From the sequence record OZ035759.1: DNA of 64,000 nt, one strand, 5' to 3'. The notes under the pieces are model-generated. The model saw only the letters and a program-made list of their open reading frames with translations, was not told the DNA's origin and did not search any database. The stretch is from Mosigvirus mar005p1. Numbering within the stretch: position 1 is the stretch's first letter; each line of letters opens with the position of its first letter. Of this stretch, positions 3,664-32,730 are shown one piece after another. The position numbers and the translations under genes were made by a program.

Positions 3664-4062
3664 TTACACTCTATTGCTTGATGCTAACTGAAGTTTGATT
3701 TGTTCGATATCATCAGGGTTATCTACGACCGAAAATCTAATCTCTACTATAACTGTATAGTCATCATATACTGGCGTTACACTTACAGAAAGTTTGTCGA
3801 TGCGTGGCTCATAGTTACGAACAGCTGCCTGGATATTACGCTCAATCGTATCGGCTGTAAGTGGTGTCATGTTCTCGAAAAGTTCATCAACCAAATCGCA
3901 TCCAAATTCAGGATCGAAGGGGCGTGAGCCTTTTCTAGTTGTCACTATGCCAAGAAGACTATTTTTAATAGAACGAAGTCCTACAGAACGAGCAACGTCC
4001 TTGTTCCAATCCATACGCATTTCTGGGTCGATATCTGAATAAAGTTTATTGATATTAGACAT
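3664..4062 (-). CDS. 25: baseplate wedge protein gp25
   Basis: 132 aa; near-identical to recalled T4 gp25. Confidence 0.95.
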   Translation of the reverse strand: MSNINKLYSDIDPEMRMDWNKDVARSVGLRSIKNSLLGIVTTRKGSRPFDPEFGCDLVDELFENMTPLTADTIERNIQAAVRNYEPRIDKLSVSVTPVYDDYTVIVEIRFSVVDNPDDIEQIKLQLASSNRV

Positions 4063-4688
4063 TATAGTAACTCAAAGAATTCTTTGAGGCCTCGTATTGT
4101 GTGAACGTGTGACGCCCCACATTTGGGACATTTAATAGGGGTTGCCAGATAAATTGATGGCGATACCAAAAGATTTTTAATATTGATCATGTCATCTTCT
4201 GTTATAAGGCCGTAAAGGTCGTTTATTTCTGCTTCAGTTAAATCTTCAACAGGGATGGACTCTCCATTGACAAAAACGGCCTCAATACATGAAGCAATCA
4301 TTAATGCGATATTTTTATCGTCAAATAATTTAGGTTGACGGAACTTAATTTTAATACCACTAAACGAATACCAGGGATCGGCCTGTTCATCTAATTGAGT
4401 GTGCAATAAATTCATATAGACTTGAAATGAATGCCCACAGGAACAATTCCAGGTGTGTTCTTGATTCACTTCACCTAATGAATGTGCCCACAGATTTACC
4501 AACAATAGCTCGGCTTCTTGTTTAGTCAAGTTTTTAGCGTTAGAGCAATTAGTGATAATATTGTTCACTGCTGATTCAATAGTACCGGTAGCCCGCGCAC
4601 CTATGAGTCCTAAATATTCTTTTAAAGTAAAGGCTCTACAATTCACTTCTTTATCGCCTAAACGTACGGTAAACGTATATTTGTACAT
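4062..4688 (-). CDS. 26: baseplate hub protein gp26
   Basis: 208 aa; T4 synteny and size. Confidence 0.9.
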   Translation of the reverse strand: MYKYTFTVRLGDKEVNCRAFTLKEYLGLIGARATGTIESAVNNIITNCSNAKNLTKQEAELLLVNLWAHSLGEVNQEHTWNCSCGHSFQVYMNLLHTQLDEQADPWYSFSGIKIKFRQPKLFDDKNIALMIASCIEAVFVNGESIPVEDLTEAEINDLYGLITEDDMINIKNLLVSPSIYLATPIKCPKCGASHVHTIRGLKEFFELL

Positions 4689-4706
4689 GTTAACTCCTTT
4701 ATTGTG

Positions 4707-4718
4707 TATTTATAAATA
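4707..4718. promoter_or_regulatory. overlapping divergent late promoters: TATAAATA on plus (4711..4718) for gene 51 and TATAAATA on minus (4707..4714) for gene 26
   Basis: sequence tatttataaata is the overlap of the two boxes; lies between divergent ATGs at 4688 and 4736. Confidence 0.6.
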
Positions 4719-4735
4719 ATAGAAAAGGAGTAATT

Positions 4736-5488
4736 ATGGCTAATATAATTCGTTGTAAATTACCGGATGGTGTTCATCGTTTTAAGCCGTTCACTGTGGC
4801 GGATTATAGAGACTTTTTACTAGTTAGAAATGATATCGAACATCGTTCGCCGCAAGAACAAAAAGAAATAATTGCCGATCTGATTGATGATTATTTTGGC
4901 GAGTACCCTAAAACATGGCAACCATTTATATTCCTGCAAGTTTTTGCAGGCTCTATAGGCAAAACAAAAGTTCCCGTTATTTTCACTTGCCCTAAATGCT
5001 CTAAAGAAAAAACTGCACCATTTGAGATATATCAAAAAGAACTAGTCGAACCTGAACTTGATGTTGCTGGTATAAAAATACGTTTTTCTTTCCCTGAAAA
5101 GTTTTATGACAACAAGGCATTAATGATAAGTGAAAACATAAAAGAAATATATTATAATGACAAATGGTACCCATGGAATGATTTGACTGAAGAGAACCAA
5201 ATCCAAGTAATAGAAGCAATAGACATTGACTCGCTCGAGAAGGTTATTGCTTCTATGAACCCTATTAATTTGACCCTTAGATTAGGCTGTTGTGAACGAC
5301 ATGTTAAAACATATACTGATATCTTAGAGGTTTTTAAATTGTTAGTTAACCCTGATGAGATTTTTACATTCTATCAGATAAACCATTCACTGGTAAAGAG
5401 TCAATACACATTGGATTCTATTATGCAAATGATTCCTGTTGAACGTGGTATTGCTTTAACATTAGTAGAAAAGGACCATAAAAAATGA
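4736..5488 (+). CDS. 51: baseplate hub assembly protein gp51
   Basis: 250 aa; AAGGAG RBS; T4 synteny. Confidence 0.9.
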
Positions 5489-6657
5489 AAGTATTCCAAC
5501 GTCCAGGATATCCTAACTTAAGCGTTAAATTATACCAAGATTATTCGGCTTGGCAAGAAAATAGATACGTTGAACTCGCGGCAACAATAACAACTTTAAC
5601 CATGCGAGATTCGCTATATGGAAGAAATGAAGGGATTCTTCAATTTTATGACACTAAAAACATCCACACTAAAATGGACGGTAGACAGATAGTCCAAATC
5701 TCTGTTTCAAATTCAAACACACCTCTCCAAGTTAGAACTCGAATTTACGGATGTAGACATTATTCTGTGTCTGTGGACTCAAAAGGTGACAATATTATTG
5801 CAATTGAGCTTGGAACAATACATTCTATAGAGAACCTTAAATTTGGCCGACCATTCTTCCCGGACGCAGGCGAATCTATACGTGAAATGTTAGGTGTCAT
5901 ATACAAAGACCGTGCGTTAATTACTCCGCCAATAAACACTATTAATGCTTATGTTCCTGATATCCCTTGGACAAGCACATTTGATGATTATTTGGCATAT
6001 GTCAGAGAATTAGGACTTGCTACAGCGAGTGATAAGTTCGTATTCGTATGGCAAGATATTTTAGGCGTAAACATGATTGACTACGATACTCTTATTGGTC
6101 AGGAAGGCATTAAGATGGTTGTAGGCGAGCCAAATACCGTAGGTCAGTATATTCAAGAGCTTGAGTATCCATTAGTATGGGATTTTACCTGGATGACTAA
6201 AGCCAACCAATTTACAAGAGACCCTATTAAAAACGCCACGATATTCGCCCATTCATTTTTAGATACATCTATTCCGGTTATTGTTACAGGCGATGGTGAT
6301 AATGCTATTGTTGTGTCAAGATCCGGTGGATATTCCGAAATGACCTATCGTAATGGATTTGAAGAAGCAAGTCGTCTTCAGACAATGGCTCAATATGACG
6401 GATATGCTAAATGCACTACTACAGGCAATTTTAACATAACTCCTGCTACTAAAATTATATTTGTTGACCAAAAGAACCAATTCAAATCCGAATTTTACGT
6501 CGATGAAGTTATTCATGAGTTATCAAATAACAACTCACAAACTCATCTGTACATGTTTACCAACTCAATGGTGTTAGAACCTGTTAACCCAGTTAAGGTT
6601 AAAAATGAACTTAAATCTGATTCTACCTCTAAAGAAAATAATTCTACCACAGTCTAA
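5485..6657 (+). CDS. 27: baseplate hub protein gp27
   Basis: 390 aa; T4 synteny and size. Confidence 0.9.
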
Positions 6658-7138: not shown

Positions 7139-8907
7139 AACCTGAAGAAATGAAATCCATGCGTAGAAATAAGGTCATTGCCGATAATAAACCACAAAAA
7201 GTAGCTGCAACAGCAGCTACCGATTCATTAGAAGCATTGAATAACATTTCATCAAAACTAGACGATGTCCAAGCCGCGTCTGAACTCACATCACAAAGTG
7301 TAGAAGATAAAGGCAATGGAATTATTGAATCAATTGGAGACTTAAAGAATTCGACAGATAATACTGCTGAAGGCACAGAGCTTATCGCAGAAGTTATTGA
7401 AAAACAAACTGAAGTCACTAAAAGTATAAACGAAGTTTCTAGTGCAATAAGCTCTAAGTTAGACCGATTAGCTACATTATTAGAGCAAAAATTACAAACA
7501 TCTACCGCTATTCAAAATACAGGAAGCACCTCTCTTGAAGTAATTGAGAACGCTATACCTGTTAAAGTGGTTGAGAACGAAACTTCTGATGAGTTGTTTA
7601 AAGCATTACCTACACCTGAAAAGATTGATAATAAGCCAGACGAAGATTTCTTCCCAGTCCCGGTTCAAGAAAGTGCTAATTCTACTTCCGATTCTAAAGG
7701 TGGAATTAACTTTAAATTGAGCGATAAAATTGCAATGCTCACCAAAACAGTTCAAACCGGGTTTAATAAATCAATATCAATTTCAGACAGAATTGCTGGA
7801 ATGCTTTTCAAATACACTATAACGGCTGCTATTGAAGCAGCAAAAATGGCCGCACTTATTCTTGGTATTGTTATCGGTATTGATTTATTGATAGTCCATT
7901 TCAAATATTGGACAGACAAGTTCACTTCTGCCTGGGATTTATTTGATGAAAACTTTACTAAATTCTCCGATGAAGCTAAAGAGTGGGGTAAATTCTTAAG
8001 TGATATATTCACTTCTATTGACTCGATAAAACAAATGTGGGAAGCTGGAGACTGGGGTGGTTTAACCGTTGCTATCGTCAAAGGTGTAGGAACAGCATTA
8101 ATGAACTTAGGTGAACTAATTCAATTAGGAATGGCTAAACTCTCTGCGTCTATATTGCGTGCTATAGGTTTTGGCGATACCGCGGACGAAATAGAAGGAC
8201 GTGCTTTGGAAGGATTCCAAGAAACTACTGGGAATAAATTAAAGAAAGAAGACCAAGAGAAAGTCGCTAAATATCAAATGAAGCGTGACGATGGGGAATT
8301 AGGAACCGTTTCTAAAGGTCTTGATATGTTACAACGCGGCAAAACATTCGTTACTAACTGGGTTCGTGGTAATGACAATAAAGAAGAGTTTAGTACAAGC
8401 GATGAGCGTGCTGCGGAATCAGCAAAATTAAAAGAGTTACCTGAAGAGGAGCGTAAAGAGGCGTATATAAAAGCTAATGAAACTCGTGCGGCACTGGTTA
8501 GATTTGAGGATTATATCGATAAAATCGATATGACTAATCCGGAAAATGCTAAAAACGTCGAGAAGTCTTATGCTGATTTAAGTAAACTTATTAAAGACCC
8601 TGAACTTAATAAAACTCCTGTTGTTAAAAAGGAATTAGATGCTAGATTTGAAAAGCTAAATAATAAAATGGCTGAAGCCAAAAAGGCTCAGACAACAGTT
8701 AAGCCTGAATCTTCGTCTAAATCTCCGGAAGCAAAACAAGTTCAGTCAATAGAGAAAGGACGTGCTTCTGAATCTAAACAACAGCAACCGGTAGCGGCGA
8801 TTAGTAACACAAATAATGTCGTCAAAAAGAATACCGTAGTCCAGAATATGACCCCTGTAACAAGTACAACGGCTCCTGGAATTTTCCATGCCACCGGTGT
8901 TAATTAA
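7135..8907 (+). CDS. 29: baseplate hub / tail length determinant gp29
   Basis: 590 aa; T4 synteny and size. Confidence 0.9.
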   Translation: MKPEEMKSMRRNKVIADNKPQKVAATAATDSLEALNNISSKLDDVQAASELTSQSVEDKGNGIIESIGDLKNSTDNTAEGTELIAEVIEKQTEVTKSINEVSSAISSKLDRLATLLEQKLQTSTAIQNTGSTSLEVIENAIPVKVVENETSDELFKALPTPEKIDNKPDEDFFPVPVQESANSTSDSKGGINFKLSDKIAMLTKTVQTGFNKSISISDRIAGMLFKYTITAAIEAAKMAALILGIVIGIDLLIVHFKYWTDKFTSAWDLFDENFTKFSDEAKEWGKFLSDIFTSIDSIKQMWEAGDWGGLTVAIVKGVGTALMNLGELIQLGMAKLSASILRAIGFGDTADEIEGRALEGFQETTGNKLKKEDQEKVAKYQMKRDDGELGTVSKGLDMLQRGKTFVTNWVRGNDNKEEFSTSDERAAESAKLKELPEEERKEAYIKANETRAALVRFEDYIDKIDMTNPENAKNVEKSYADLSKLIKDPELNKTPVVKKELDARFEKLNNKMAEAKKAQTTVKPESSSKSPEAKQVQSIEKGRASESKQQQPVAAISNTNNVVKKNTVVQNMTPVTSTTAPGIFHATGVN

Positions 8908-11370: not shown

Positions 11371-13458
11371 CTATCCTTGGACAAATTTAAACGGAACTGA
11401 TTCTAAATCCATTAAAGACGCTAACAATTTCAAACCTTTAGGTGCACTAGTTTTTTCTACAAATGAGGAGAACGATACCGGCTCATCTGATTCGATTTCA
11501 CCCGTCATAGCAACCACCTCGCCTGTTTCCATGAGAACATCACCATCGTAAATGACAGCTTCGTCCAACTGGTCCGAGGACATAACTTCAGCTTGAATAA
11601 ATTTAAGGTTGGATTCTAAACCTGCACCAGTGTCAGATGACGCATCTGTAATTTTATTTATCTGCAAGAGAATGCCTCTAGGCAAAATAATTTCTTGCTC
11701 ATTAGGGTGATTACTCAACTGTCCTGGATAAATCACGTTAACTTTATGAGCGCCATCAATAGCCCATCCAACGTTAACACGGATTTGTTCTGGCGCATGC
11801 ATAGCTGTTCTTACTTGACTAGGAGAAATAGTAACACCTTCGTCATTATTGTCAATGTTAAGCTCTTTGCGAACTTCTTCAGGAGCAAGTCCAAGGGCAA
11901 CGTTCTCTTTAAACCCGCCGAAAATAATAGGAGCTAGTGAAGTGGAAACATAGTTTCTGAAGTAGAATACCTTATTTTTAACCATTGCTTCGTAAATAGG
12001 CATTCTGATAGACTGAGCTCTATATAATGTTAGTCCTTCAGGTAAACGGTCTCCGTTTAAAAACGCTGAATCAAGACCATCAATAGCGCGTTTAACTTCA
12101 TCTTCATCTGCAACATCGTAAAAATCTGGTTTATAGCGACCTAACAACATATTATTAATATCGGTATACGCAGAAGAGGCATATTCACGAATAGCTCGTT
12201 TTTCAACAACAGAGTATTGTTTAGGGTCCCGATTCATTGTTATATTAAAGGTGCCTCTAGCCGATTCTCGTGCATAAGTATACATCACATTAGACAAGAA
12301 CGCTGATTTACGTTGTTTCCAAGTTCTTTCAGATACTTCAGCTAAAACGTCGTCGGGCAGTTGGAAATTATCACGTCTAAAATCTTCAAACCATTCGTCT
12401 CTAATAGAGTCTGCAATTTCGTTTGCAGCTTCAACAAAAGCAGCTAATGCTTTAACAGATGTTGTTTTTTCAGTTTTAATTTTCTTAGCAAACTTTTCTA
12501 AAGCCGGCTTAATAACACTACCATAAGAAACTTCATCAGCAAATCTAAAGGATTCATCAATACGATTATAAATCTTATTTTCGATATCAGCAACTAAAGT
12601 GCCTTTTGCTGTGGATGATGCTTGGGCTAGTACGATTTCATATGCTTCAGGAAGTAATTCGGCTGTAGCCGGGCCACTAACTTCTTTAGCAGAATTTTCG
12701 TATTTCTGGAATAACTCACCTTCTTGGCGGTCAGCTTCTAAAGATTGACTTGCTGCAATAGCACGACGAGAAATTTTAGTACGAGCAATAACAGGCTTAT
12801 CTTTACGTTTTTCTTCTACAGCAGCAATAGAACCAGCGATAGCCGTTTCTTTGGTGACTTTTTCGCCGGTCTTTTTACTCACATAAACTTCGCCAACATC
12901 AGAATCTACTTTCGCGTACAACTCTGTGTTAATGTTAGGGATGCCTTTAATATCTTCAATGTTGGCATTTTTACGAACCATCATCACATAGGTGTGTTTA
13001 CCTGTGAATTGATACATTGCCGACAATACTTTAAAACGACCACCTGTTTTAGTAGAAACTAGACGAGCAAGAAGAGTTTGAAGTTGTTGTCCACGTCCTT
13101 TCAATTTCTTGGTAGGGAATCGGAACAGAACTGCATCCATACGAAGAGCTTTAACCTGTTCATACACTGTATTGAAAATGGTGTTGATTGCATCAATAGG
13201 AGCAGGACCAAGGCCATTTTTCAATTCAGCGAGATTACCCTTTTCAGACAGACTCATAATAACAACATGAGCGTATTTATCGCCAAGTTTAACTTGTTTT
13301 ACAGCATCGCCTTCAGAAAGGTAAGAGAATAAGCGAACTACAATATTTGTATCAACATCACCAATTTTCCAGACTTGTGGAACTTTAGCTTTAGGGTTCA
13401 AATTGACGACAGGAAGACTGCCTTCAGATTCAAACACTTCATTTAATTGTTCAGACAT
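11371..13458 (-). CDS. alt: Alt ADP-ribosyltransferase (packaged into virion)
   Basis: 695 aa; T4 synteny and size; ART-like C-terminal region. Confidence 0.9.
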   Translation of the reverse strand: MSEQLNEVFESEGSLPVVNLNPKAKVPQVWKIGDVDTNIVVRLFSYLSEGDAVKQVKLGDKYAHVVIMSLSEKGNLAELKNGLGPAPIDAINTIFNTVYEQVKALRMDAVLFRFPTKKLKGRGQQLQTLLARLVSTKTGGRFKVLSAMYQFTGKHTYVMMVRKNANIEDIKGIPNINTELYAKVDSDVGEVYVSKKTGEKVTKETAIAGSIAAVEEKRKDKPVIARTKISRRAIAASQSLEADRQEGELFQKYENSAKEVSGPATAELLPEAYEIVLAQASSTAKGTLVADIENKIYNRIDESFRFADEVSYGSVIKPALEKFAKKIKTEKTTSVKALAAFVEAANEIADSIRDEWFEDFRRDNFQLPDDVLAEVSERTWKQRKSAFLSNVMYTYARESARGTFNITMNRDPKQYSVVEKRAIREYASSAYTDINNMLLGRYKPDFYDVADEDEVKRAIDGLDSAFLNGDRLPEGLTLYRAQSIRMPIYEAMVKNKVFYFRNYVSTSLAPIIFGGFKENVALGLAPEEVRKELNIDNNDEGVTISPSQVRTAMHAPEQIRVNVGWAIDGAHKVNVIYPGQLSNHPNEQEIILPRGILLQINKITDASSDTGAGLESNLKFIQAEVMSSDQLDEAVIYDGDVLMETGEVVAMTGEIESDEPVSFSSFVEKTSAPKGLKLLASLMDLESVPFKFVQG

Positions 13459-19994: not shown

Positions 19995-20019
19995 ATAATA
20001 CCATACTATTCGTAAAGCA
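19995..20019 (-). promoter_or_regulatory. middle promoter (MotA box TGCTTTA, 12 nt, TATTAT; minus strand) upstream of gene 31
   Basis: plus taaagca 20013..20019 and ataata 19995..20000. Confidence 0.5.
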
Positions 20020-20021
20020 TA

Positions 20022-20330
20022 TTACATAAGAAGCAAACGTTCTACCGGAGTACCATCAACCGAAATTACTTTATCAAGGCGGAAAGAACGCCACTGACCT
20101 AACTCGGTATCGAATGCTCGAACTGATTCACGAGGTTCAGAACGAACTTCTGTTGCTGGATTTCTATTTTCATATTTGACTTCAAGTTCATCACGGGAGG
20201 CAAACATCGTACGAACATCACCGTTAGCCTTTTCAAATACAACACAATGAACGCCTACAGACAGAATAGTTTTAATACGTTCACGAAGAACCATAGTTTC
20301 TTGTTCAGTTAAAATCATATTATTCACCAC
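20022..20330 (-). CDS. 31.1: 31.1 hypothetical protein
   Basis: 102 aa; T4 synteny. Confidence 0.55.
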   Translation of the reverse strand: MVNNMILTEQETMVLRERIKTILSVGVHCVVFEKANGDVRTMFASRDELEVKYENRNPATEVRSEPRESVRAFDTELGQWRSFRLDKVISVDGTPVERLLLM

Positions 20331-20901
20331 AAAAGTTTCGAATTTGTTCCCAATTCAGAGAACGAAGATTATTACGAGAGTACTGAATTACTTCAATACC
20401 AGCTTGTTTAAGAATGTCTGTCCAATTTTCAGGAGACCGGTCATATAATTCTGCATATACAACCTTTTTAATGCCTGACTGTGTGATAGCTTTAGTGCAA
20501 TCAGGACACGGAGAAAGCGTAGTATATAACGTAGCACCTTCAATAGAATTACCTTTACGAGCAGCAAACAAAATTGCATTCAATTCCGCATGGATTTCGT
20601 TATTAGCAGACCATGCACTATGAGCGGCCCGATGTTCTTTAGCCAAAACAAAATTATCTGCCCGTCCAAATGCTGTAGTGCCTTCTTTATGCCCAGCAAC
20701 GATGACCGGGCTTGGTTTATTCTTCAACCAACCTTGTTCGGTAGCATGGTCACAACAGTTTGTACCACCTGAAGGAGACCCATTATAACCCGTAGAGATA
20801 ATGCGCCCATCTTTTTCAATGACGGCACCAACTTTCCATGAACAACATTTTGATTCTTGAGAAATCAGATATGCAATCTGAAGGTATGTGCTAGCTTTCA
20901 T
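20320..20901 (-). CDS. cd: dCMP deaminase
   Basis: 193 aa; HAELNA and PCxxC zinc-binding deaminase motifs. Confidence 0.9.
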   Translation of the reverse strand: MKASTYLQIAYLISQESKCCSWKVGAVIEKDGRIISTGYNGSPSGGTNCCDHATEQGWLKNKPSPVIVAGHKEGTTAFGRADNFVLAKEHRAAHSAWSANNEIHAELNAILFAARKGNSIEGATLYTTLSPCPDCTKAITQSGIKKVVYAELYDRSPENWTDILKQAGIEVIQYSRNNLRSLNWEQIRNFCGE

Positions 20902-21893
20902 TATTGAACCTTATTAATATAAGTTAACAGCTCTTTAGTTTGTTCCCAACTGATGCACGCATCGGTAACGGAAACGCCATAGGACATATTATCAGAAATT
21001 TTTTGATTTCCTTCATGTAGGAATGATTCTATCATAATTCCTTTGACCAAATCATTAGCTGCTAAATTTTTACCAATACCAATTTGATTGCTATAATGCC
21101 CAGCAGCGTTTGCATGGCTACAGTCAACCATTACATAATGATTCAGACCTACTGCACTTGCTTTGTTAGAAGCTTCTTGAATATCAGAAGAATGATAGTT
21201 CGGGCCGTTGGTCCCGCCACGCAATACGATATGCGTATTCTGATTACCTTCAGCTTCAACAATGCCTACAGTACCATCGACGTCCATACCCATATACCGA
21301 TGAGGCCAGGCGGCACTATACATCGCGTCTGTAGCTACTTTAATAGAACCATTGGTTGCGTTCTTGAAGCCTACGCACATCGGTAGACCTGAAGCAATTT
21401 CACGATGTGTCTGACTTTCAGTCGTACGGGCGCCAATAGCAACCCATGAGAAAATACCAGAAAGATACTTAATCGTGAATGGGTCTAATACTTCAGTTGC
21501 TAATGGAAGTCCCATACGTAGAAGTTTACGACACAATGTTCGTGCAACTATAAGACCGTGGTTCATATCAAAACTTCCGTCAAGATATGGATCATTTACA
21601 AGACCTTTCCAACCTACGGTAGTTCGAGGCTTTTCAAAATAAACGCGCATCACTAACAGAACATTAGGAAGACGAGTTTGAAGTTCAGCCAGACGTTTGC
21701 CGTATTCAACAGCAGCAATAGGGTCATGAATTGAACAAGGACCTACAACAATAAGTTTGCGTGGGTCTTCACCGTTCATAATCGAATTAACTTGTTCGCG
21801 ATGAGAAGCCACTTGTGATGCGTAAGCTTCCGACAAAGGAATAATCTCAGCCAGTTCTTTTGGAGAAATAAGTTTTCCGACGACAGGTAACAT
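20901..21893 (-). CDS. class I 3-deoxy-7-phosphoheptulonate (DAHP) synthase, AroG-like; not present in T4
   Basis: 330 aa; GPCSIHDP, VYFEKPRTTVGWKGLVNDP, GARTTESQ motifs, near-identical to E. coli AroG motifs recalled from memory; ATG overlaps cd stop. Confidence 0.85.
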   Translation of the reverse strand: MLPVVGKLISPKELAEIIPLSEAYASQVASHREQVNSIMNGEDPRKLIVVGPCSIHDPIAAVEYGKRLAELQTRLPNVLLVMRVYFEKPRTTVGWKGLVNDPYLDGSFDMNHGLIVARTLCRKLLRMGLPLATEVLDPFTIKYLSGIFSWVAIGARTTESQTHREIASGLPMCVGFKNATNGSIKVATDAMYSAAWPHRYMGMDVDGTVGIVEAEGNQNTHIVLRGGTNGPNYHSSDIQEASNKASAVGLNHYVMVDCSHANAAGHYSNQIGIGKNLAANDLVKGIMIESFLHEGNQKISDNMSYGVSVTDACISWEQTKELLTYINKVQ

Positions 21894-22013
21894 AACAATC
21901 CTTAGGAGATATAAACAGATTCTGATTCAACAATACCTTTAACCGGATTAGACAGGCTAAGTTGGTAGTGCTCAGATTTATGACCATTCTCGATAGTAAT
22001 GAGATAGCTCTCA

Positions 22014-22250
22014 TTATAGTGTTCCATATACTCGAGTTGCTTCAACTAAACCGTCACTGCCTAATTTAAGGCTAGTAATCTGGTCACCATCTTTAGGATT
22101 AACGATTATGAGAAAAGAACGTGGAGATTCTTGAATAACTCGTAATGTTGCATCCTGGAAACGTTCAGACACTTTATTGATGAGTGCTTGAGCAAATTCT
22201 TTTACTTTAATCTGAAATTCGTGTACTGTAATTGGATTTTCACTTAGCAT
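22014..22250 (-). CDS. hypothetical small protein (cd.x region)
   Basis: 78 aa ORF preceded by an early promoter. Confidence 0.45.
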   Translation of the reverse strand: MLSENPITVHEFQIKVKEFAQALINKVSERFQDATLRVIQESPRSFLIIVNPKDGDQITSLKLGSDGLVEATRVYGTL

Positions 22251-22278: not shown

Positions 22279-22309
22279 ATAGTATCACAACTCCACCATG
22301 TTGTAAACC
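22279..22309 (-). promoter_or_regulatory. T4 early promoter (GTTTACA N18 TACTAT, minus strand)
   Basis: plus atagta 22279..22284, tgtaaac 22303..22309. Confidence 0.5.
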
Positions 22310-22990: not shown

Positions 22991-24076
<1,086 letters not shown>

Positions 24077-24939: not shown

Positions 24940-25292
24940 TCCGAGAGCTTCCTGAGGTCTTCTGCAAAGGAATCGAAGGACCTGTTGATTTGTTTTTCGA
25001 CCAATCCTGGCTTACTTGCCACCACGTTCTTCTTCTTCGAATCCTTACGGAGCTTTTCATTTTCAGCCTTAAGTTGGTCAACTAAAACACGGTTCTTATA
25101 AGTCATTTCTTCGATTGACTGATATTGAATCTTGAAGTCGTCTAATACTTTAGCATTGTTTTTAGCAGTCTCTTTAACAGAAGCCAATTCAGTATTCAGC
25201 GAATCGACTTTATGGTTCAGAAATGCTATTGTTACAGTAGCAACAACTGCAAAAGCTGCCACTACAATATATGATGCATTTACTTTAAGCAT
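24936..25292 (-). CDS. predicted membrane-anchored coiled-coil protein
   Basis: 118 aa; N-terminal hydrophobic helix followed by charged heptad-like region. Confidence 0.45.
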   Translation of the reverse strand: MLKVNASYIVVAAFAVVATVTIAFLNHKVDSLNTELASVKETAKNNAKVLDDFKIQYQSIEEMTYKNRVLVDQLKAENEKLRKDSKKKNVVASKPGLVEKQINRSFDSFAEDLRKLSE

Positions 25293-31285: not shown

Positions 31286-32146
31286 TTATACCGCCATTTT
31301 AGCTTTGATAGTTGGATGAGATTCGTAATTTTTAAGAACGAAATCAGAATGTGTCATCGTTCCAGTAACCCAGTCCATTTGGATTTTTGTAGGCCAATTC
31401 TCAAAATTACTAGGCCAATTAATTTCAAGAGAACATAACTCTTTAGGTTCACGACTAAGAACTTCTTTGCATTGTTCTACATGATTGCTGTAGATATGAG
31501 TGTTGCCGCCTGAGAACACTAAATCACCTGGGATAAGGTTACACATCTTCGCTACAATATGCGCCAAGGCGGCGTACGAGGCAATGTTGAACGGCAGGCC
31601 CAAGAAAACATCTACACTGCGTTGATACCATTGTAAATCAAGATGTCCATTACGCACATTAAATTGATAGAACATATGACAAGGAGGAAGAGCCATTTGG
31701 TCAATTTCGGCTGGGTTCCATGCAGAAACTATTTGACGACGATCATTAGGAAGAGCTTTAATACGGTCGATAGTTTTGACCAATTGGTCTACACCACCAA
31801 AATCACGCCATTGCTTACCATAAATAGGACCAAGTTCACCACTATGATATCCAAGGTCTTTTGCCTGATTTTCATAGTTGTCGTCCCAAATAGTTTTACC
31901 TTGAATAAGACTACCATGAGTACGAATACGCAAATCATTAACATTGGTAGAACCAGACATGAACCACAGTAACTCGGCAATACAAGCTTTCCATGCTAAT
32001 TTCTTAGTTGTTACTGCAGGGAATCCTTTAGTCAGATCCCAACGTAATTTAGTTCCGAATAGAGCAATTGTTCCTGTGCCTGTACGGTCGTCAGTTTCAT
32101 AACCATTTTCTAGGATATCATTAATCAGGTATTGGTATTGTTTCAT
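31286..32146 (-). CDS. td: thymidylate synthase; uninterrupted (no group I intron)
   Basis: 286 aa; near-identical to recalled T4 Td exon protein; active-site PPCH motif. Confidence 0.95.
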   Translation of the reverse strand: MKQYQYLINDILENGYETDDRTGTGTIALFGTKLRWDLTKGFPAVTTKKLAWKACIAELLWFMSGSTNVNDLRIRTHGSLIQGKTIWDDNYENQAKDLGYHSGELGPIYGKQWRDFGGVDQLVKTIDRIKALPNDRRQIVSAWNPAEIDQMALPPCHMFYQFNVRNGHLDLQWYQRSVDVFLGLPFNIASYAALAHIVAKMCNLIPGDLVFSGGNTHIYSNHVEQCKEVLSREPKELCSLEINWPSNFENWPTKIQMDWVTGTMTHSDFVLKNYESHPTIKAKMAV

Positions 32147-32730
32147 TTATATACGCTCTCAGTAATTTCGGTGAGTTCATCGATTCTATAGTAATGAGAT
32201 TCTACCATAGAACGTTGAAGCATAATATCTTGGATGAAATCTTTATCAAGCTGAACGTCTGAATTAACACGACATTTCTTAATGATTTTAGTCATCACGA
32301 TTTCATCGGCATAAGGCAGTGCTTGTTTTAATAAAGCCGGGCCACCAATAACAGATACATCAACATGTTCAGTAGAAAGTTTAAACGGTACATCAGTTGC
32401 AGGGCTAAACAGGTTAATTTCACAACCTGTTACCAAGGTAATAAATTCAGATTGGGTGATATAGAACCGTGCAAGTTCATCAGTTTTAGTCCTAGGCAGT
32501 TTTCTGGCCATATCAGTGACAACCACATGAGTACGATCCGGGAGTAGACGAGGTAATGATGCAAAAGTCTTAGCACCCATAACCATTACAGTGTTTTTAG
32601 TGCGAGCAACAAAGTTACTCATATCTTGTTTGATATGCTTCCATGGAAGTCCATCACCTAATCCAAAAGCATATTCAAGTTTATCATCAACTGTTTTAGA
32701 CGGTGCGCATGCGAATACTAATTTAAGCAT
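32143..32730 (-). CDS. frd: dihydrofolate reductase
   Basis: 195 aa; T4 synteny. Confidence 0.9.
   Translation of the reverse strand: MLKLVFACAPSKTVDDKLEYAFGLGDGLPWKHIKQDMSNFVARTKNTVMVMGAKTFASLPRLLPDRTHVVVTDMARKLPRTKTDELARFYITQSEFITLVTGCEINLFSPATDVPFKLSTEHVDVSVIGGPALLKQALPYADEIVMTKIIKKCRVNSDVQLDKDFIQDIMLQRSMVESHYYRIDELTEITESVYK

Follow-up and report, generated by a model that had tools for sequence, protein, structure and literature searches.

A DAHP synthase with a remodelled inhibitor site in Mosigvirus and related T4-like phages, and its possible role in prephenate supply

Why should a T4-like phage carry, beside its dCMP deaminase gene, an enzyme that feeds carbon into the shikimate pathway? 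The question is raised by the window analysed here, a stretch of 64,000 nucleotides from Mosigvirus mar005p1 (RB69-like; sequence record OZ035759.1), in which an ORF of 330 amino acid residues plus stop encodes a DAHP synthase (3-deoxy-7-phosphoheptulonate synthase, DAHPS). A preliminary description of this DNA had read it as a class I DAHP synthase of 330 residues, and both the exact coordinates (20901..21893, minus strand) and the signature, with VYFEKPRTTVGWKGLVNDP and GARTTESQ in the protein, were reproduced. In the profile search, PF00793 (DAHP_synth_1; E=7e-75, 251.8 bits, cutoff 25.5, residues 36-323) and NCBIfam TIGR00034 (aroFGH; 427 bits, cutoff 173.2) were both far above their cutoffs, NF009395 (the PRK12755 model) was passed with 454.8 bits (cutoff 343), and PHROG 5045 was matched in full length (E=9e-182, with residues 1-330 covering profile positions 8-337 of 341). 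The ORF clearly belongs to the type I-alpha DAHP synthases. Its best PDB match is E. coli AroF 6AGM (E=1.5e-104), and its identity is 51% to AroF, 47% to AroG and 44% to AroH. The former label 'AroG-like' is imprecise, because the equivalogs of AroG (NF006723, 364 bits against 568) and AroH (NF009396, 384.8 bits against 463) were failed, only the generic aroFGH and PRK12755 models were passed, and AroF is the nearest of the three. The traits of the AroF (Tyr-sensitive) type are themselves mixed, the Gly at the specificity position being kept and Gln152 and Ser181 being replaced by Lys and Pro, respectively. The intact KPRTT motif and the full set of erythrose-4-phosphate (E4P) and PEP ligands rule out both a KDO8P synthase and a change of sugar substrate. 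KDO8P synthases have a KANRS-type motif in place of KPRT, are ~280 residues long and lack the regulatory hairpin; the top profile and structure matches of the window protein are all DAH7PS and include no KDO8P synthase. The features of the locus are given in Table 1.

Table 1. Features of the DAHPS gene and its surroundings in the window
Feature	Coordinates	Strand	Basis or remark
Remodelled inhibitor-site loop DPFTIKYLSG, residues 137-146	21456..21485	minus	Alignment, clade statistics
Pro171 codon in place of the Ser that contacts the inhibitor (AroG S180 / AroF S181)	21381..21383	minus	Alignment
Shortened N-terminus, residues 1-10	21864..21893	minus	AroG residues 1-8 (including Asp6, Asp7) without equivalent
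KPRTT motif, residues 88-92	21618..21632	minus	Erythrose-4-P and PEP binding; sets DAHPS apart from KDO8P synthase
Retained beta6a/beta6b regulatory hairpin, residues 198-214	21252..21302	minus	AF2 strands 198-203, 209-214
Shine-Dalgarno AAGGA, 5 nt upstream of the DAHPS ATG	21899..21903	minus	Sequence read
TAATG stop/start overlap, DAHPS TAA with dCMP deaminase ATG (translational coupling)	20899..20903	minus	Sequence read
dCMP deaminase (cd), downstream coupled gene	20320..20901	minus	PF00383, E=2e-26
Small ORF upstream of DAHPS	21902..22045	minus	47 aa as listed, 41 aa in the APCEc01 annotation
Cassette of 1,094 bp, small ORF and DAHPS	20905..21998		In the window, missing from RB69
13-bp imperfect direct repeat, upstream copy ATAATGAGAGCTA	22005..22017	minus	Junction comparison
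13-bp repeat, downstream copy ATAATGAAAGCTA, the cd start	20892..20904	minus	Junction comparison; the single copy of RB69
Candidate sigma-70/T4-early-type promoter TTTACA-17-TACTAT, TG-extended	22279..22307	minus	Consensus scan only

The gene itself is not new. It is annotated in many GenBank/RefSeq records and forms PHROG 5045, so that the gene call as such is routine, and its product shares 98-100% identity with proteins annotated in the Escherichia phages p000y, moskry, APCEc01 and HX01 and in numerous others. Under the GenBank name 'phospho-2-dehydro-3-deoxyheptonate aldolase' or as PHROG 5045, the same gene is present in Mosigvirus, Kanagawavirus, Marfavirus, Winklervirus, Bragavirus and others, and these annotated homologues share its locus between pseT and cd. 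It has no counterpart in T4, which agrees with its first description as an auxiliary metabolic gene (AMG); phage DAHPS had also been listed earlier as an AMG, with a generic hypothesis only (PMC11845039). A search of the accessible literature found no experimental, biochemical or genetic work on any phage DAHPS.

The catalytic equipment is complete. All of the 14 catalytic or substrate residues scored in the alignment (C61, H268, E302, D326, R92, K97, P98, R99, T100, G163, A164, R165, K186 and R234 in AroG numbering) are intact in the window protein as well as in each of the 29 phage-type sequences. The metal ligands, invariant in 29/29 phage-type sequences, are C53, H260, E289 and D311 (AroG Cys61, His268, Glu302 and Asp326), the PEP- and E4P-binding residues are R83, K88-P89-R90-T91, G154-A155-R156, K177 and R225, and the KPRTT motif is the same in 29/29 phage-type and 98/98 cellular sequences. 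The AF2 model (pLDDT 92.3) contains the (beta/alpha)8 barrel with the beta6a/beta6b insertion, and in Foldseek it matches NmeDAH7PS, AroG and Aro4 with TM 0.94-0.96 and rmsd 1.5-1.8 A. The fold, the metal ligands, the PEP/E4P residues and KPRT are common to the phage enzyme and to AroF 6AGM, AroG, AroH, N. meningitidis DAH7PS and yeast Aro3/Aro4. The phage enzyme also has the hairpin and, at the position of AroG S211, the Gly of the Tyr-sensitive enzymes (G202; Y200 stands at AroG F209). With dN/dS of 0.15-0.22, the gene is shown to be under purifying selection, and the window protein is almost certainly an active DAHP synthase.

What is new is the regulatory site, and in the alignment its change is a feature of the whole monophyletic clade of T4-like phages. 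In the inhibitor-site loop, P150, Q151 and D155 of AroG are replaced by I141, K142 and G146, and together with P171 and Y200 they make a pocket that is non-canonical against P150, Q151, D155, S180 and F209 of AroG. The phage-type sequences show P150I in 28/29, Q151K/R in 29/29, D155G in 23/24 and S180P in 29/29 cases, and the cellular sequences keep P150 in 89/98, Q151 in 96/98, D155 in 95/98 and S180 in 95/98 (S or T in 96/98). A combination of the I141/K142/G146/P171/Y200 type was not found among the 98 cellular and ~55 other viral homologues (~150 in all), the latter of which, mostly from giant viruses, retain the canonical pocket. The roles of AroG Q151, D155 and P150 are given in PMC9529685; the side chains of Q151/Q152 and S180/S181 bind the main chain of the inhibitor and D155/D156 forms a stabilising salt bridge.

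The N-terminus is changed as well. Nothing in the window protein corresponds to the first 8-9 residues of AroG/AroF, and the AroG-Pro19 column is preceded by 8-12 residues in 29/29 phage-type sequences versus 16-53 in the 98 cellular proteins. Work by Shumilin and colleagues in 2002 reportedly placed the N-terminal Asp6 and Asp7 of AroG in contact with the inhibitor in the partner subunit. An annotation artefact was dismissed as the source of the short N-terminus, since there is no upstream in-frame start, the Shine-Dalgarno sequence is well placed and the MLPVV/MRPLV termini are conserved. The total deficit of about 20 residues against AroG stands as first described, but its supposed division between the two termini does not: 8 residues are missing at the N-terminus, 5 at the C-terminus and a net 7 internally (-1, +1, -5, -2). 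That the short N-terminus might deregulate the enzyme, another early proposal, is plausible and is backed further by the four replaced inhibitor-site residues. Compared with AroF/G/H, the phage enzyme is 20-26 residues shorter, is without the N-terminal inhibitor-capping residues and has I-K/G/P for P-Q/D/S; unlike these cellular enzymes, it is encoded by a virus and stands outside any aro/tyr operon context.

From these changes in sequence the phage enzyme is probably insensitive to the aromatic amino acids, with the reservation that single substitutions at the pocket positions destabilise cellular DAHPS, so that extrapolation to the phage pocket is imperfect. Engineered or selected feedback-resistant enzymes (AroG P150L, S180F, D146N and Q151 variants; C. 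glutamicum AroF P155L/I, Q159A and S188F) overlap with the phage enzyme in inhibitor-site positions (AroG 150, 151 and 180). However, the laboratory variants are single substitutions and often costly, Q159A being unstable, S188F weak and D163A not expressible, whereas the phage clade has a fixed, co-adapted change of several residues together with the N-terminal truncation, all under purifying selection. It is thus apparently a natural and stable multi-residue feedback-desensitised type I-alpha DAHPS, which could be useful for the metabolic engineering of aromatic compounds, in contrast to the single laboratory mutations at matching positions that are often unstable.

Alternatively, the allosteric site could have been retuned and not lost, the I-K...G...P...Y pocket binding a different effector, for instance an anionic metabolite of the shikimate pathway or of nucleotide metabolism that acts as a phage-relevant signal; this would fit any sink of the pathway. 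Within the phage clade the pocket columns vary less than the average column does (entropy 0.46 vs 0.99, P=0.006), and hence the site may bind another effector rather than be dead. The hairpin is retained, and the substitutions take out three acidic groups and add one Lys, which shifts the net charge of the pocket from -3/-2 to -1. Yet the same region is the dimer interface, where conservation could be purely structural, and we regard a retuned site as unlikely.

The phage sequences are a separate clade without a close cellular donor, as judged from the tree and the identities. The closest cellular relatives are at most 54% identical and come from mixed phyla, and the clade was monophyletic in 35/40 bootstraps with the signature columns removed. 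The GC3 of the window gene is 0.29, similar to that of the adjoining phage genes, compared with 0.50 in E. coli aroF. A recent capture of a host aroF, aroG or aroH is ruled out by the low identity, the mixed phyla, the monophyly and the phage-like GC3. The gene may have been taken up long ago by an ancestor of several T4-like genera, with the allosteric site rebuilt since then. Matches to DAHPS in 'Acinetobacter phage MD-2021a' were discarded as bacterial contigs with cob genes.

At the locus itself, small cd.x ORFs only are seen at this position in T4-type genomes (RB9) and in JS98, in agreement with what had been said of T4. The direct coupling to dCMP deaminase that was first described holds in the window, where the stop and start codons overlap, but not throughout the family: 1-2 ORFs intervene in Bragavirus and Winklervirus. 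The small ORF directly upstream of DAHPS (phrog_15876) carries an incomplete, C-terminal DUF7320/cd.2-like copy (PF24005, E=1e-6, covering profile positions 43-76 only). In blastn against the RB69 locus the flanks are 96-97% identical and the 1.1-kb cassette is absent; the RB69 annotation has cd.2 abutting cd. The absence of the cassette from RB69 means that the DAHPS gene is dispensable in the laboratory. A clean absence and a short direct repeat at the flanks are also what a neutral or decaying moron without current function would leave. Nevertheless, the low dN/dS, the invariance of the 14 catalytic residues down to 56% identity, the synteny across at least six genera and the fully phage-adapted composition make a functionless gene most improbable. 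The candidate promoter could drive the cd.2-like ORF, the small ORF, DAHPS and cd in this order, though the number of sigma-70-like sites in the scan was not above the shuffled expectation; between it and the gene there is neither a TATAAATA late promoter nor a predicted terminator. A MotA-box-like motif is absent immediately upstream of DAHPS and enriched window-wide.

A first idea for the purpose of the enzyme came from the preliminary description, in which extra chorismate would go into pABA and folate and so serve the phage thymidylate synthase and dihydrofolate reductase. Chorismate is the precursor of pABA, and td (31286-32146) and frd (32143-32730) share their strand and early gene block with DAHPS; they are, however, 9.4-10.8 kb away and not the immediate neighbours they had been taken for, and the adjacency of DAHPS to cd is an indel junction that is not conserved. 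Folate is a recycled cofactor, for which a flux-controlling enzyme is a poor fit. The cytosine modification enzyme of these phages is an FMN/O2-dependent ThyA homologue that takes its oxygen from O2 and is not a folate enzyme. Since this modification uses FMN/O2 and not methylene-THF, the folate demand should be lower than in T4, which has no DAHPS. In addition, the chorismate mutase (CM) of sister genera diverts chorismate from the pABA branch towards prephenate, and the 100 kb of annotated Mosigvirus genome contain no pab or fol gene. Given the FMN/O2 chemistry, the recycling of the cofactor and the mutase, the folate rationale is weak and this purpose very unlikely.

A different sink is suggested by the genes that accompany DAHPS elsewhere in the genome. 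These phages carry a peptidase-U32 gene within the cluster for arabinosyl-5-hydroxycytosine DNA modification, beside the gene for C5 hydroxylation of cytosine. Cellular members of the U32 family are RlhA (ho5C in 23S rRNA), TrhP (ho5U in tRNA) and UbiU/UbiV (anaerobic ubiquinone), whose O2-independent hydroxylations require prephenate; prephenate is the demonstrated oxygen donor for UbiU/V, with the authors of that work predicting the same in other U32 proteins, and the proposed one for RlhA, which makes 5-hydroxycytidine and needs prephenate and Fe-S. Hydroxylation of cytosine at C5, the chemistry of RlhA, is also required in the DAHPS phages with U32. Genetically, the cellular U32 systems require the shikimate pathway as far as prephenate, and the DAHPS phages usually add a CM; unlike the phages, cells obtain prephenate from housekeeping enzymes, with no dedicated DAHPS or CM attached. 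The phage U32 protein, a putative cytosine hydroxylase, is highly diverged from its cellular relatives, with a Cys motif that is incompletely conserved (~2/4 canonical Fe-S cysteines alignable). Its membership in the family rests on PF01136 (42 bits, cutoff 22.4) and a published fold match, and pairwise matches to RlhA, TrhP, UbiU and UbiV were not significant.

U32 was found in 221 phage records, none of them from phages of the strict aerobe Acinetobacter. By host genus, the records with U32 and with DAHPS number 137 and 125 for Escherichia, 26 and 25 for Klebsiella, 14 and 12 for Shigella, 7 and 7 for Proteus, 7 and 6 for Serratia, 4 and 4 for Enterobacter, and 3 and 3 for Edwardsiella. The U32 cluster was present in all of the 10 sampled lineages with DAHPS, and no T4-like phage with DAHPS or CM and without U32 was seen. 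The co-occurrence may reflect a single gain within one clade and is to that extent phylogenetically confounded. A CM gene (PF01817, E=1e-10 to 5e-12) was found in 51 records, always with U32 on one side and the ThyA homologue on the other; the phages that have it include Kanagawa-, Marfa-, Winkler-, Kagamiyama-, Teguna- and Mosugukvirus and Thanatos. No CM was detected in Mosigvirus, either in the 100 kb of 348Ecol098PP or in the 64-kb window, and an unrelated 53-aa ORF occupies the site. The association is also incomplete in other respects: ~14 Mosigvirus records have U32 without DAHPS (153 vs 139 at >=95% identity), RB69, the experimental model in which 5-hydroxycytosine is fully arabinosylated, has U32 with neither DAHPS nor CM, Tegunavirus and Mosugukvirus have U32 and CM and no DAHPS at the cd-pseT locus (that locus only), and Thanatos, with U32 and CM, is absent from the DAHPS tblastn tallies. 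DAHPS and the U32 cluster are ~60 kb or more apart; the three complete genomes in which both were located give distances of about 61-64 kb. U32 is not inside the 64-kb window, and its presence in this phage is inferred from genomes that are 98% identical (a20, APCEc01 and 348Ecol098PP). Aeromonas phage HJ05, considered as an independent replicate, has no U32 or CM nearby, and an IMG/VR scan found no DAHPS beside U32 within +/-10 kb in unrelated viruses.

The main rival to a supply of prephenate is a generic supply of aromatic amino acids, in which DAHPS, with CM in the sister genera, would raise Phe and Tyr (and Trp) for the large burst of virion proteins after host expression is shut off, and the link to U32 would be a coincidence. 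DAHPS is the flux-controlling step, CM leads to Phe and Tyr, and this hypothesis was put forward for Kanagawavirus KLB31 (PMC11845039). In one giant-virus contig in IMG/VR, DAHPS is accompanied by a stand-alone CM and U32 was not detected within 10 kb, and RB69 shows no obvious loss in the laboratory without the gene. But amino-acid supply leaves three things unexplained: the constant position of CM between U32 and the 5-hydroxy-dCMP synthase, the restriction of DAHPS and CM to phages that carry U32 in a set of more than 2,000 cd-encoding phage records, and the lack of both genes in T4, T2, T6 and other T-even relatives, whose demand for protein is equal. We consider this purpose somewhat unlikely. 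As a further option, DAHPS could serve to drain erythrose-4-P and PEP irreversibly, with no relation to any aromatic product, whereby the pentose-phosphate pathway, the source of ribulose-5-P for UDP-arabinose, would be reshaped. DAHPS does occur only in phages with the NDP-sugar cluster; nonetheless, the sugar genes are present and DAHPS is absent in 57 Acinetobacter and ~45 Dhakavirus-type records, which also excludes DAHPS as a part of the arabinose branch. As such a sink would waste PEP and four carbons and leave CM without a role, it is highly improbable.

Taken as a whole, the locus is best explained by a deregulated DAHPS that would feed prephenate to U32-linked hydroxylation, to which we assign a probability of roughly 0.45. 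The enzyme, presumably expressed alongside the early/middle nucleotide-metabolism genes and translationally coupled to cd, would condense PEP and erythrose-4-P to DAHP and Pi as a metal-dependent type I-alpha DAHPS. The N-terminal cap over the partner subunit's inhibitor site is gone, and the residues that hold the main chain of the inhibitor (Q151, S180), stabilise the site (D155) or confer feedback resistance on mutation (P150) are fixed as K, G, P and I in the order Q151, D155, S180 and P150; with the cap lost and the pocket so changed, the enzyme should ignore Phe, Tyr and Trp and sustain the flow of carbon through the shikimate pathway. In the infected cell the host aro genes would no longer be inducible and the host DAHPS isozymes would be feedback-inhibited, and the other six steps to chorismate could be left to host enzymes already present. 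The most likely sink would be prephenate, in phages where every cytosine is replaced by arabosyl-5-hydroxycytosine, and DAHPS would secure it in stoichiometric amounts for an oxygen-independent formation of 5-hydroxycytosine, for instance in the gut, which is anoxic and rich in amino acids. By analogy with cellular U32 proteins, it is possible, at a little less than even odds, that prephenate for U32 is the main purpose of the enzyme. DAHPS and the stand-alone CM of the sister genera may, equally tentatively, form a dedicated prephenate supply line. It is likewise conceivable, with similar caution, that there are two routes of hydroxylation, one by the O2/FMN-dependent ThyA-type 5-hydroxy-dCMP synthase and one by a putatively O2-independent U32 with prephenate, a scheme that perhaps mirrors the TrhO/TrhP duality of E. 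coli. A purpose in prephenate supply appears not to have been described before: no published link between DAHPS, CM and U32 was found in the searchable part of the literature.

If true, this reading would account for the hydroxylation of every cytosine by gut phages in the absence of O2 and would give a function to the orphan gene for RB69 gp50, the phage U32 to which the accessible pathway papers assign no function beyond 'sugar or heterocycle reductase'. It would also move a 'metabolic' AMG into an anti-restriction pathway of DNA hypermodification, away from a protein- or folate-oriented role, and provide a high-flux and genetically tractable system for the prephenate-dependent U32 hydroxylases, whose activity has so far not been reconstituted in vitro. 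The expected demand is considerable: with ~6.4e4 cytosines per genome and an assumed burst size, prephenate would be needed in the order of 1e7 molecules per burst, which, judged from the composition of E. coli, would be a sizeable fraction of the total prephenate flux of a cell generation.

The open reading frame (ORF) of 330 amino acids between pseT and cd (the dCMP deaminase gene) was described from the sequence as a DAHP synthase, which is confirmed here: the coordinates are exact, the motifs VYFEKPRTTVGWKGLVNDP and GARTTESQ are present in the translation, and the profile matches are far over the cutoffs (Pfam DAHP_synth_1, E=7e-75; NCBIfam aroFGH, 427 bits with a cutoff of 173, and PRK12755, 455 bits with a cutoff of 343). 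The closest solved structure is E. coli AroF (6AGM, E=1.5e-104), and in PHROGs the protein belongs to phrog_5045 ('moron, auxiliary metabolic gene and host takeover', E=9e-182). An AAGGA Shine-Dalgarno sequence lies 5 nt 5' of the ATG, and the TAA stop shares a TAATG overlap with the ATG of cd. The genes on both flanks are those common in T-even phages: gp31, a WYL_2 protein gene and cd on one flank, cd.2/cd.3-like DUFs and pseT on the opposite one, and farther on rnlA, denA, nrdB, nrdA, td and frd. Across 4.4 kb the region matches many Escherichia and Shigella Mosigvirus phages (RB69-like Tevenvirinae) at 98% identity. Moreover, tblastn found the protein (DAHPS hereafter) in 212 phage records, with identities of at least 95% in 139 records (Mosigvirus), 77% in Kanagawavirus, 66–69% in Winklervirus, Erwinia phages, Marfavirus and Kagamiyamavirus, and 58% in Bragavirus, and the pseT-DAHPS-cd placement is constant in every genus examined. 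T4 was said to have only small cd.x ORFs here, and the same is seen in T4-type RB9 and Dhakavirus JS98, where the cd-pseT interval has no DAHPS. The gene is already known and widely annotated, commonly as phospho-2-dehydro-3-deoxyheptonate aldolase, DAHP synthase or aroF; the Kanagawavirus copy appears in one paper among the auxiliary metabolic genes, with a generic hypothesis (PMC11845039), and no experimental study of a phage DAHPS was found in the literature searched.

Coordinates of the features discussed (positions in the window unless another record or locus is named; those in RB69, Entb_45, PEi26, EcS1, HJ05 and the giant-virus contig count within each extracted stretch)
Feature	Position	Strand	Remark
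DAHPS CDS, 330 aa (ORF reading)	20901..21893	minus	
cd, 193 aa	20320-20901		
Cassette, small ORF and DAHPS, 1,094 bp	20905-21998		absent from RB69
Imperfect 13-bp direct repeat, ATAATGArAGCTA	22005-22017 and 20892-20904		flanks the cassette
Small ORF adjoining DAHPS upstream	21902-22045	minus	DUF7320 (cd.2 family) match, C-terminal half only
Full-length DUF7320-family ORF	22014-22250		
MotA-box-like sites (examples)	23273-23297, 19995-20019, 25266-25291		
Cassette-free junction, RB69	locus ~8237-8255		single copy
cd, RB69	locus 7743-8252		annotated 169 aa
U32 gene, Escherichia phage 348Ecol098PP	OR062947.1 88352-89512		outside the window
Chorismate mutase (CM), Entb_45	locus 5658-5897		
CM, PEi26	locus 11748-11987		
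CM, EcS1	locus 7174-7518		
Features cited, Aeromonas phage HJ05	OQ594355.1 locus 3899-5062 and 5196-5546		
DAHPS and CM, giant-virus contig IMGVR_UViG_3300035698_025071	9884-10939 and 18723-18962		~8 kb apart

Aligned with AroG, AroF and AroH from the E. coli K-12 genome, the window DAHPS is 47, 51 and 44% identical, respectively, and no catalytic residue is lost. The metal ligands C61, H268, E302 and D326 of AroG are kept as C53, H260, E289 and D311, as are the PEP/E4P residues R92, K97-P98-R99-T100, G163-A164-R165, K186 and R234 (AroG numbering), and the catalytic and substrate residues are invariant in 29 phage-type DAHPS with identities down to 56%. An AlphaFold2 model (pLDDT 92.3, pTM 0.92) gives TM values of 0.94–0.96 with solved type I-alpha enzymes. 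In addition, dN/dS with the orthologues is 0.15–0.22, and GC3 is 0.29, with 0.27–0.34 in neighbouring phage genes and 0.50 in E. coli aroF. The window protein is almost certainly an active DAHP synthase, and we infer that it has long been established in the phage lineage.

A homologue search across 5.8 billion proteins separated phage-type sequences (at least 55% identical, 319–343 aa) by a clean gap from cellular ones (at most 54% identical, 341–388 aa, of mixed phyla). In a neighbour-joining tree with the signature columns removed, the phage clade appeared in 35 of 40 bootstraps and had no specific cellular sister. The label 'AroG-like' used in the preliminary description is inaccurate: the protein scores under both the AroG and the AroH equivalog cutoffs, and at the AroG-S211 position it shares a Gly with E. 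coli AroF.

The same description placed the 20-aa shortfall relative to AroG at the two termini, which is only partly right because 8 aa are N-terminal and 5 aa C-terminal, while a net 7 aa are internal. The counterparts of AroG residues 1–8 are absent, including Asp6 and Asp7, through which the partner subunit touches the inhibitor. The pocket changes count for more than protein length: AroG P150-Q151 is replaced by I141-K142, D155 by G146, S180 by P171 and F209 by Y200. Comparison of 24–29 phage-type clusters with 98 cellular sequences showed the same pattern (AroG numbering): I at position 150 in 28/29 phage-type and P in 89/98 cellular sequences; K or R at 151 in 29/29, and Q in 96/98; G at 155 in 23/24, and D in 95/98; P at 180 in 29/29, and S in 95/98; and Y at 209 in 29/29, and F in 95/98. 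Ahead of the AroG-P19 column there are 8–12 residues in phage-type and 16–53 in cellular sequences. A review on engineering feedback-resistant enzymes states that the side chains of Q151/Q152 and S180/S181 hold the main chain of the inhibitor, that D155/D156 forms a stabilising salt bridge, that P150L, S180F and changes of Q151 give feedback-resistant variants, and that single changes at inhibitor-site positions can destabilise the enzyme (PMC9529685). The pocket columns have an entropy of 0.46 in the phage clade, compared with 0.99 for random non-catalytic columns (P=0.006), and the beta6a/beta6b hairpin is kept in the model; the inhibitor site is a rebuilt one under selection, not a decaying one. 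The suspected deregulation is therefore likely, on the replaced pocket residues as well as the short N-terminus, and the enzyme is probably insensitive to Phe, Tyr and Trp; that the pocket now binds some other effector is a minority possibility. Within type I-alpha DAHPS, the clade of T4-like phages is a regulatory variant of its own. The canonical pocket is kept in about 55 other viral DAHPS from IMG/VR, most of them from giant-virus MAGs.

RB69, the type Mosigvirus, lacks the cassette formed by the small ORF and DAHPS and has a precise junction with a single copy of the 13-bp repeat, which duplicates the start of cd; variants with and without DAHPS therefore occur in nature. The small ORF overlaps the full-length DUF7320-family ORF; insertion of the cassette may have left it behind as a partial duplicate. 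DAHPS and cd are separated by other ORFs in Bragavirus and Winklervirus, and adjacency to cd is not informative on the role. The RB69 cd is shorter than that of the window and the C-termini diverge (…ILKPSWY*); the old RB69 record, in which other split ORFs are known, could have a frameshift or a sequencing error here.

A boost of chorismate for folate, on which td and frd depend, was suggested earlier on the ground of this neighbourhood, and it is not borne out. Adjacency to cd says nothing on the point, td and frd are 9–11 kb distant from DAHPS, and folate is a catalytic, recycled cofactor. T4 depends on methylene-THF twice, for dTMP and for hm-dCMP, and despite this double need it has no DAHPS. 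CM commits chorismate to prephenate, away from folate, tryptophan and quinones. In RB69-type phages, 5-hydroxy-dCMP is the product of a ThyA homologue that uses FMN and O2, and is then arabinosylated (PMC13326640), so that cytosine modification is independent of folate. The folate role is thus very improbable.

The distribution of DAHPS points to another part of the genome. Between gp43 and the ThyA homologue, an annotated Mosigvirus genome encodes an arabinose-5-P isomerase, a bifunctional kinase/nucleotidyltransferase, a HAD phosphatase and a peptidase-U32 family protein (U32), given in RB69 (gp50) as a putative 'sugar or heterocycle reductase' (PMC13326640). Cellular U32 proteins are required for O2-independent hydroxylations: 5-hydroxycytidine of 23S rRNA needs RlhA, Fe-S clusters and prephenate, and UbiU/UbiV demonstrably take their oxygen from prephenate, as the authors predicted for other U32 proteins. 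TrhP produces 5-hydroxyuridine in tRNA. There are 221 records with the phage U32, each with at least 80% aa identity; Shewanella phage Thanatos is among them, and none is from Acinetobacter phages. No other gene of the arabinosyl-5-hydroxycytosine cluster comes near this conservation, and the neighbouring nucleotidyltransferase falls to 28–72%. The host-genus profiles of U32 and DAHPS records are nearly the same (Escherichia, 137 and 125; Klebsiella, 26 and 25; Shigella, 14 and 12; Proteus, 7 and 7; Serratia, 7 and 6; Enterobacter, 4 and 4; Edwardsiella, 3 and 3).

Furthermore, a stand-alone CM of 75–114 aa (PF01817, E=1e-10 to 5e-12), labelled hypothetical in most records, is located between U32 and the ThyA homologue in 51/51 records, and its gene overlaps both the U32 and the 5-hydroxy-dCMP synthase genes. 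It is found in Kanagawa-, Marfa-, Winkler-, Kagamiyama-, Teguna- and Mosugukvirus, in Providencia and Morganella phages and in Thanatos, and in Mosigvirus an unrelated 53-aa ORF has this position. The constant position of CM next to U32 links prephenate with the DNA-modification module. U32, CM and DAHPS are together in Kanagawa-, Marfa- and Winklervirus, Erwinia Virsaitis27, EcS1 and Providencia phages; U32 and CM in Teguna- and Mosugukvirus (cd-pseT locus without DAHPS) and in Thanatos (absent from the DAHPS tallies); and U32 and DAHPS in most Mosigviruses, including the lineage of the window, and in Bragavirus. Neither DAHPS nor CM without U32 was seen in T4-like phages among the matches listed, and Acinetobacter phages and Dhakavirus have the sugar cluster with none of the three. 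In Dhakavirus phages, JS98 included, a 'phosphoheptose isomerase' takes the place of the arabinose-5-P isomerase beside the kinase/nucleotidyltransferase homologue (42%), and their DNA may bear a different sugar.

That DAHPS is confined to phages which carry U32 and hydroxylate their cytosine suggests a specific role in DNA hypermodification, although the association may come from a single gain in one clade. We propose that U32 would catalyse an oxygen-independent route to 5-hydroxycytosine with prephenate as stoichiometric oxygen donor, parallel to the O2/FMN route as TrhP is to TrhO in E. coli, and that this prephenate would be assured by DAHPS, together with CM in those phages that have one, in the anoxic, amino-acid-rich gut, where the host aromatic pathway is repressed and feedback-inhibited. 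From the gene distribution and the analogy with cellular U32 proteins, we give such a role a probability of about 0.4. With ~6.4e4 cytosines per genome (GC 0.378, ~169 kb), a burst of 100–200 would need prephenate of the order of 1e7, between one tenth and one quarter of the total prephenate flux of an E. coli cell generation, so the demand is plausible by scale; a flux-controlling, feedback-insensitive entry enzyme fits it far better than the need for a cofactor such as folate.

Several facts weigh against prephenate supply. RB69 has U32 and lacks both DAHPS and CM, and its DNA is fully modified in aerobic culture (PMC13326640). Likewise, ~14 Mosigvirus records have U32 and no DAHPS. DAHPS is dispensable at least in the laboratory, and phages with U32 alone do occur. 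DAHPS and the U32 cluster are roughly 60 kb or more apart. The phage U32 is too diverged for a significant pairwise match to RlhA, TrhP, UbiU or UbiV; about 2/4 canonical cysteines align, and its 13 Cys include a C-terminal CxxxxC...CxxC cluster. A generic supply of aromatic amino acids is the main rival reading and the less likely of the two. The giant-virus contig fits it equally well, with DAHPS and a stand-alone CM and no U32 detectable within 10 kb; an NCLDV major capsid protein gene immediately adjoins, and the contig also encodes Hsp70, photolyase and an Elp3-like radical-SAM/GNAT protein.

Dozens of further GVMAG contigs carry DAHPS with the canonical regulatory pocket. The unrelated 79-kb phage HJ05 has independently acquired a DAHPS (38% identity) whose pocket diverges in its own way (A-H...P...P); it adjoins an Acb2/Tad1-type anti-defence sponge gene and a methyltransferase gene, with no U32 or CM nearby, which likewise weighs against prephenate supply. 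The 'Acinetobacter phage MD-2021a' contigs (CAKLQH020000056.1) were rejected as phage DAHPS, with aroF beside cobS, cobT and cobU in a bacterial-looking setting; filed as phage, they inflate the apparent phage spread of DAHPS. In the window, MotA-box-like sites (TGCTTNA-N10-14-TANNNT) number 18, with 6.0 expected and 18 reached in 0/100 shuffles; 16 of them are on the minus strand and one lies within pseT, upstream of the DAHPS operon, which is consistent with T4-type middle transcription of this early-gene block.
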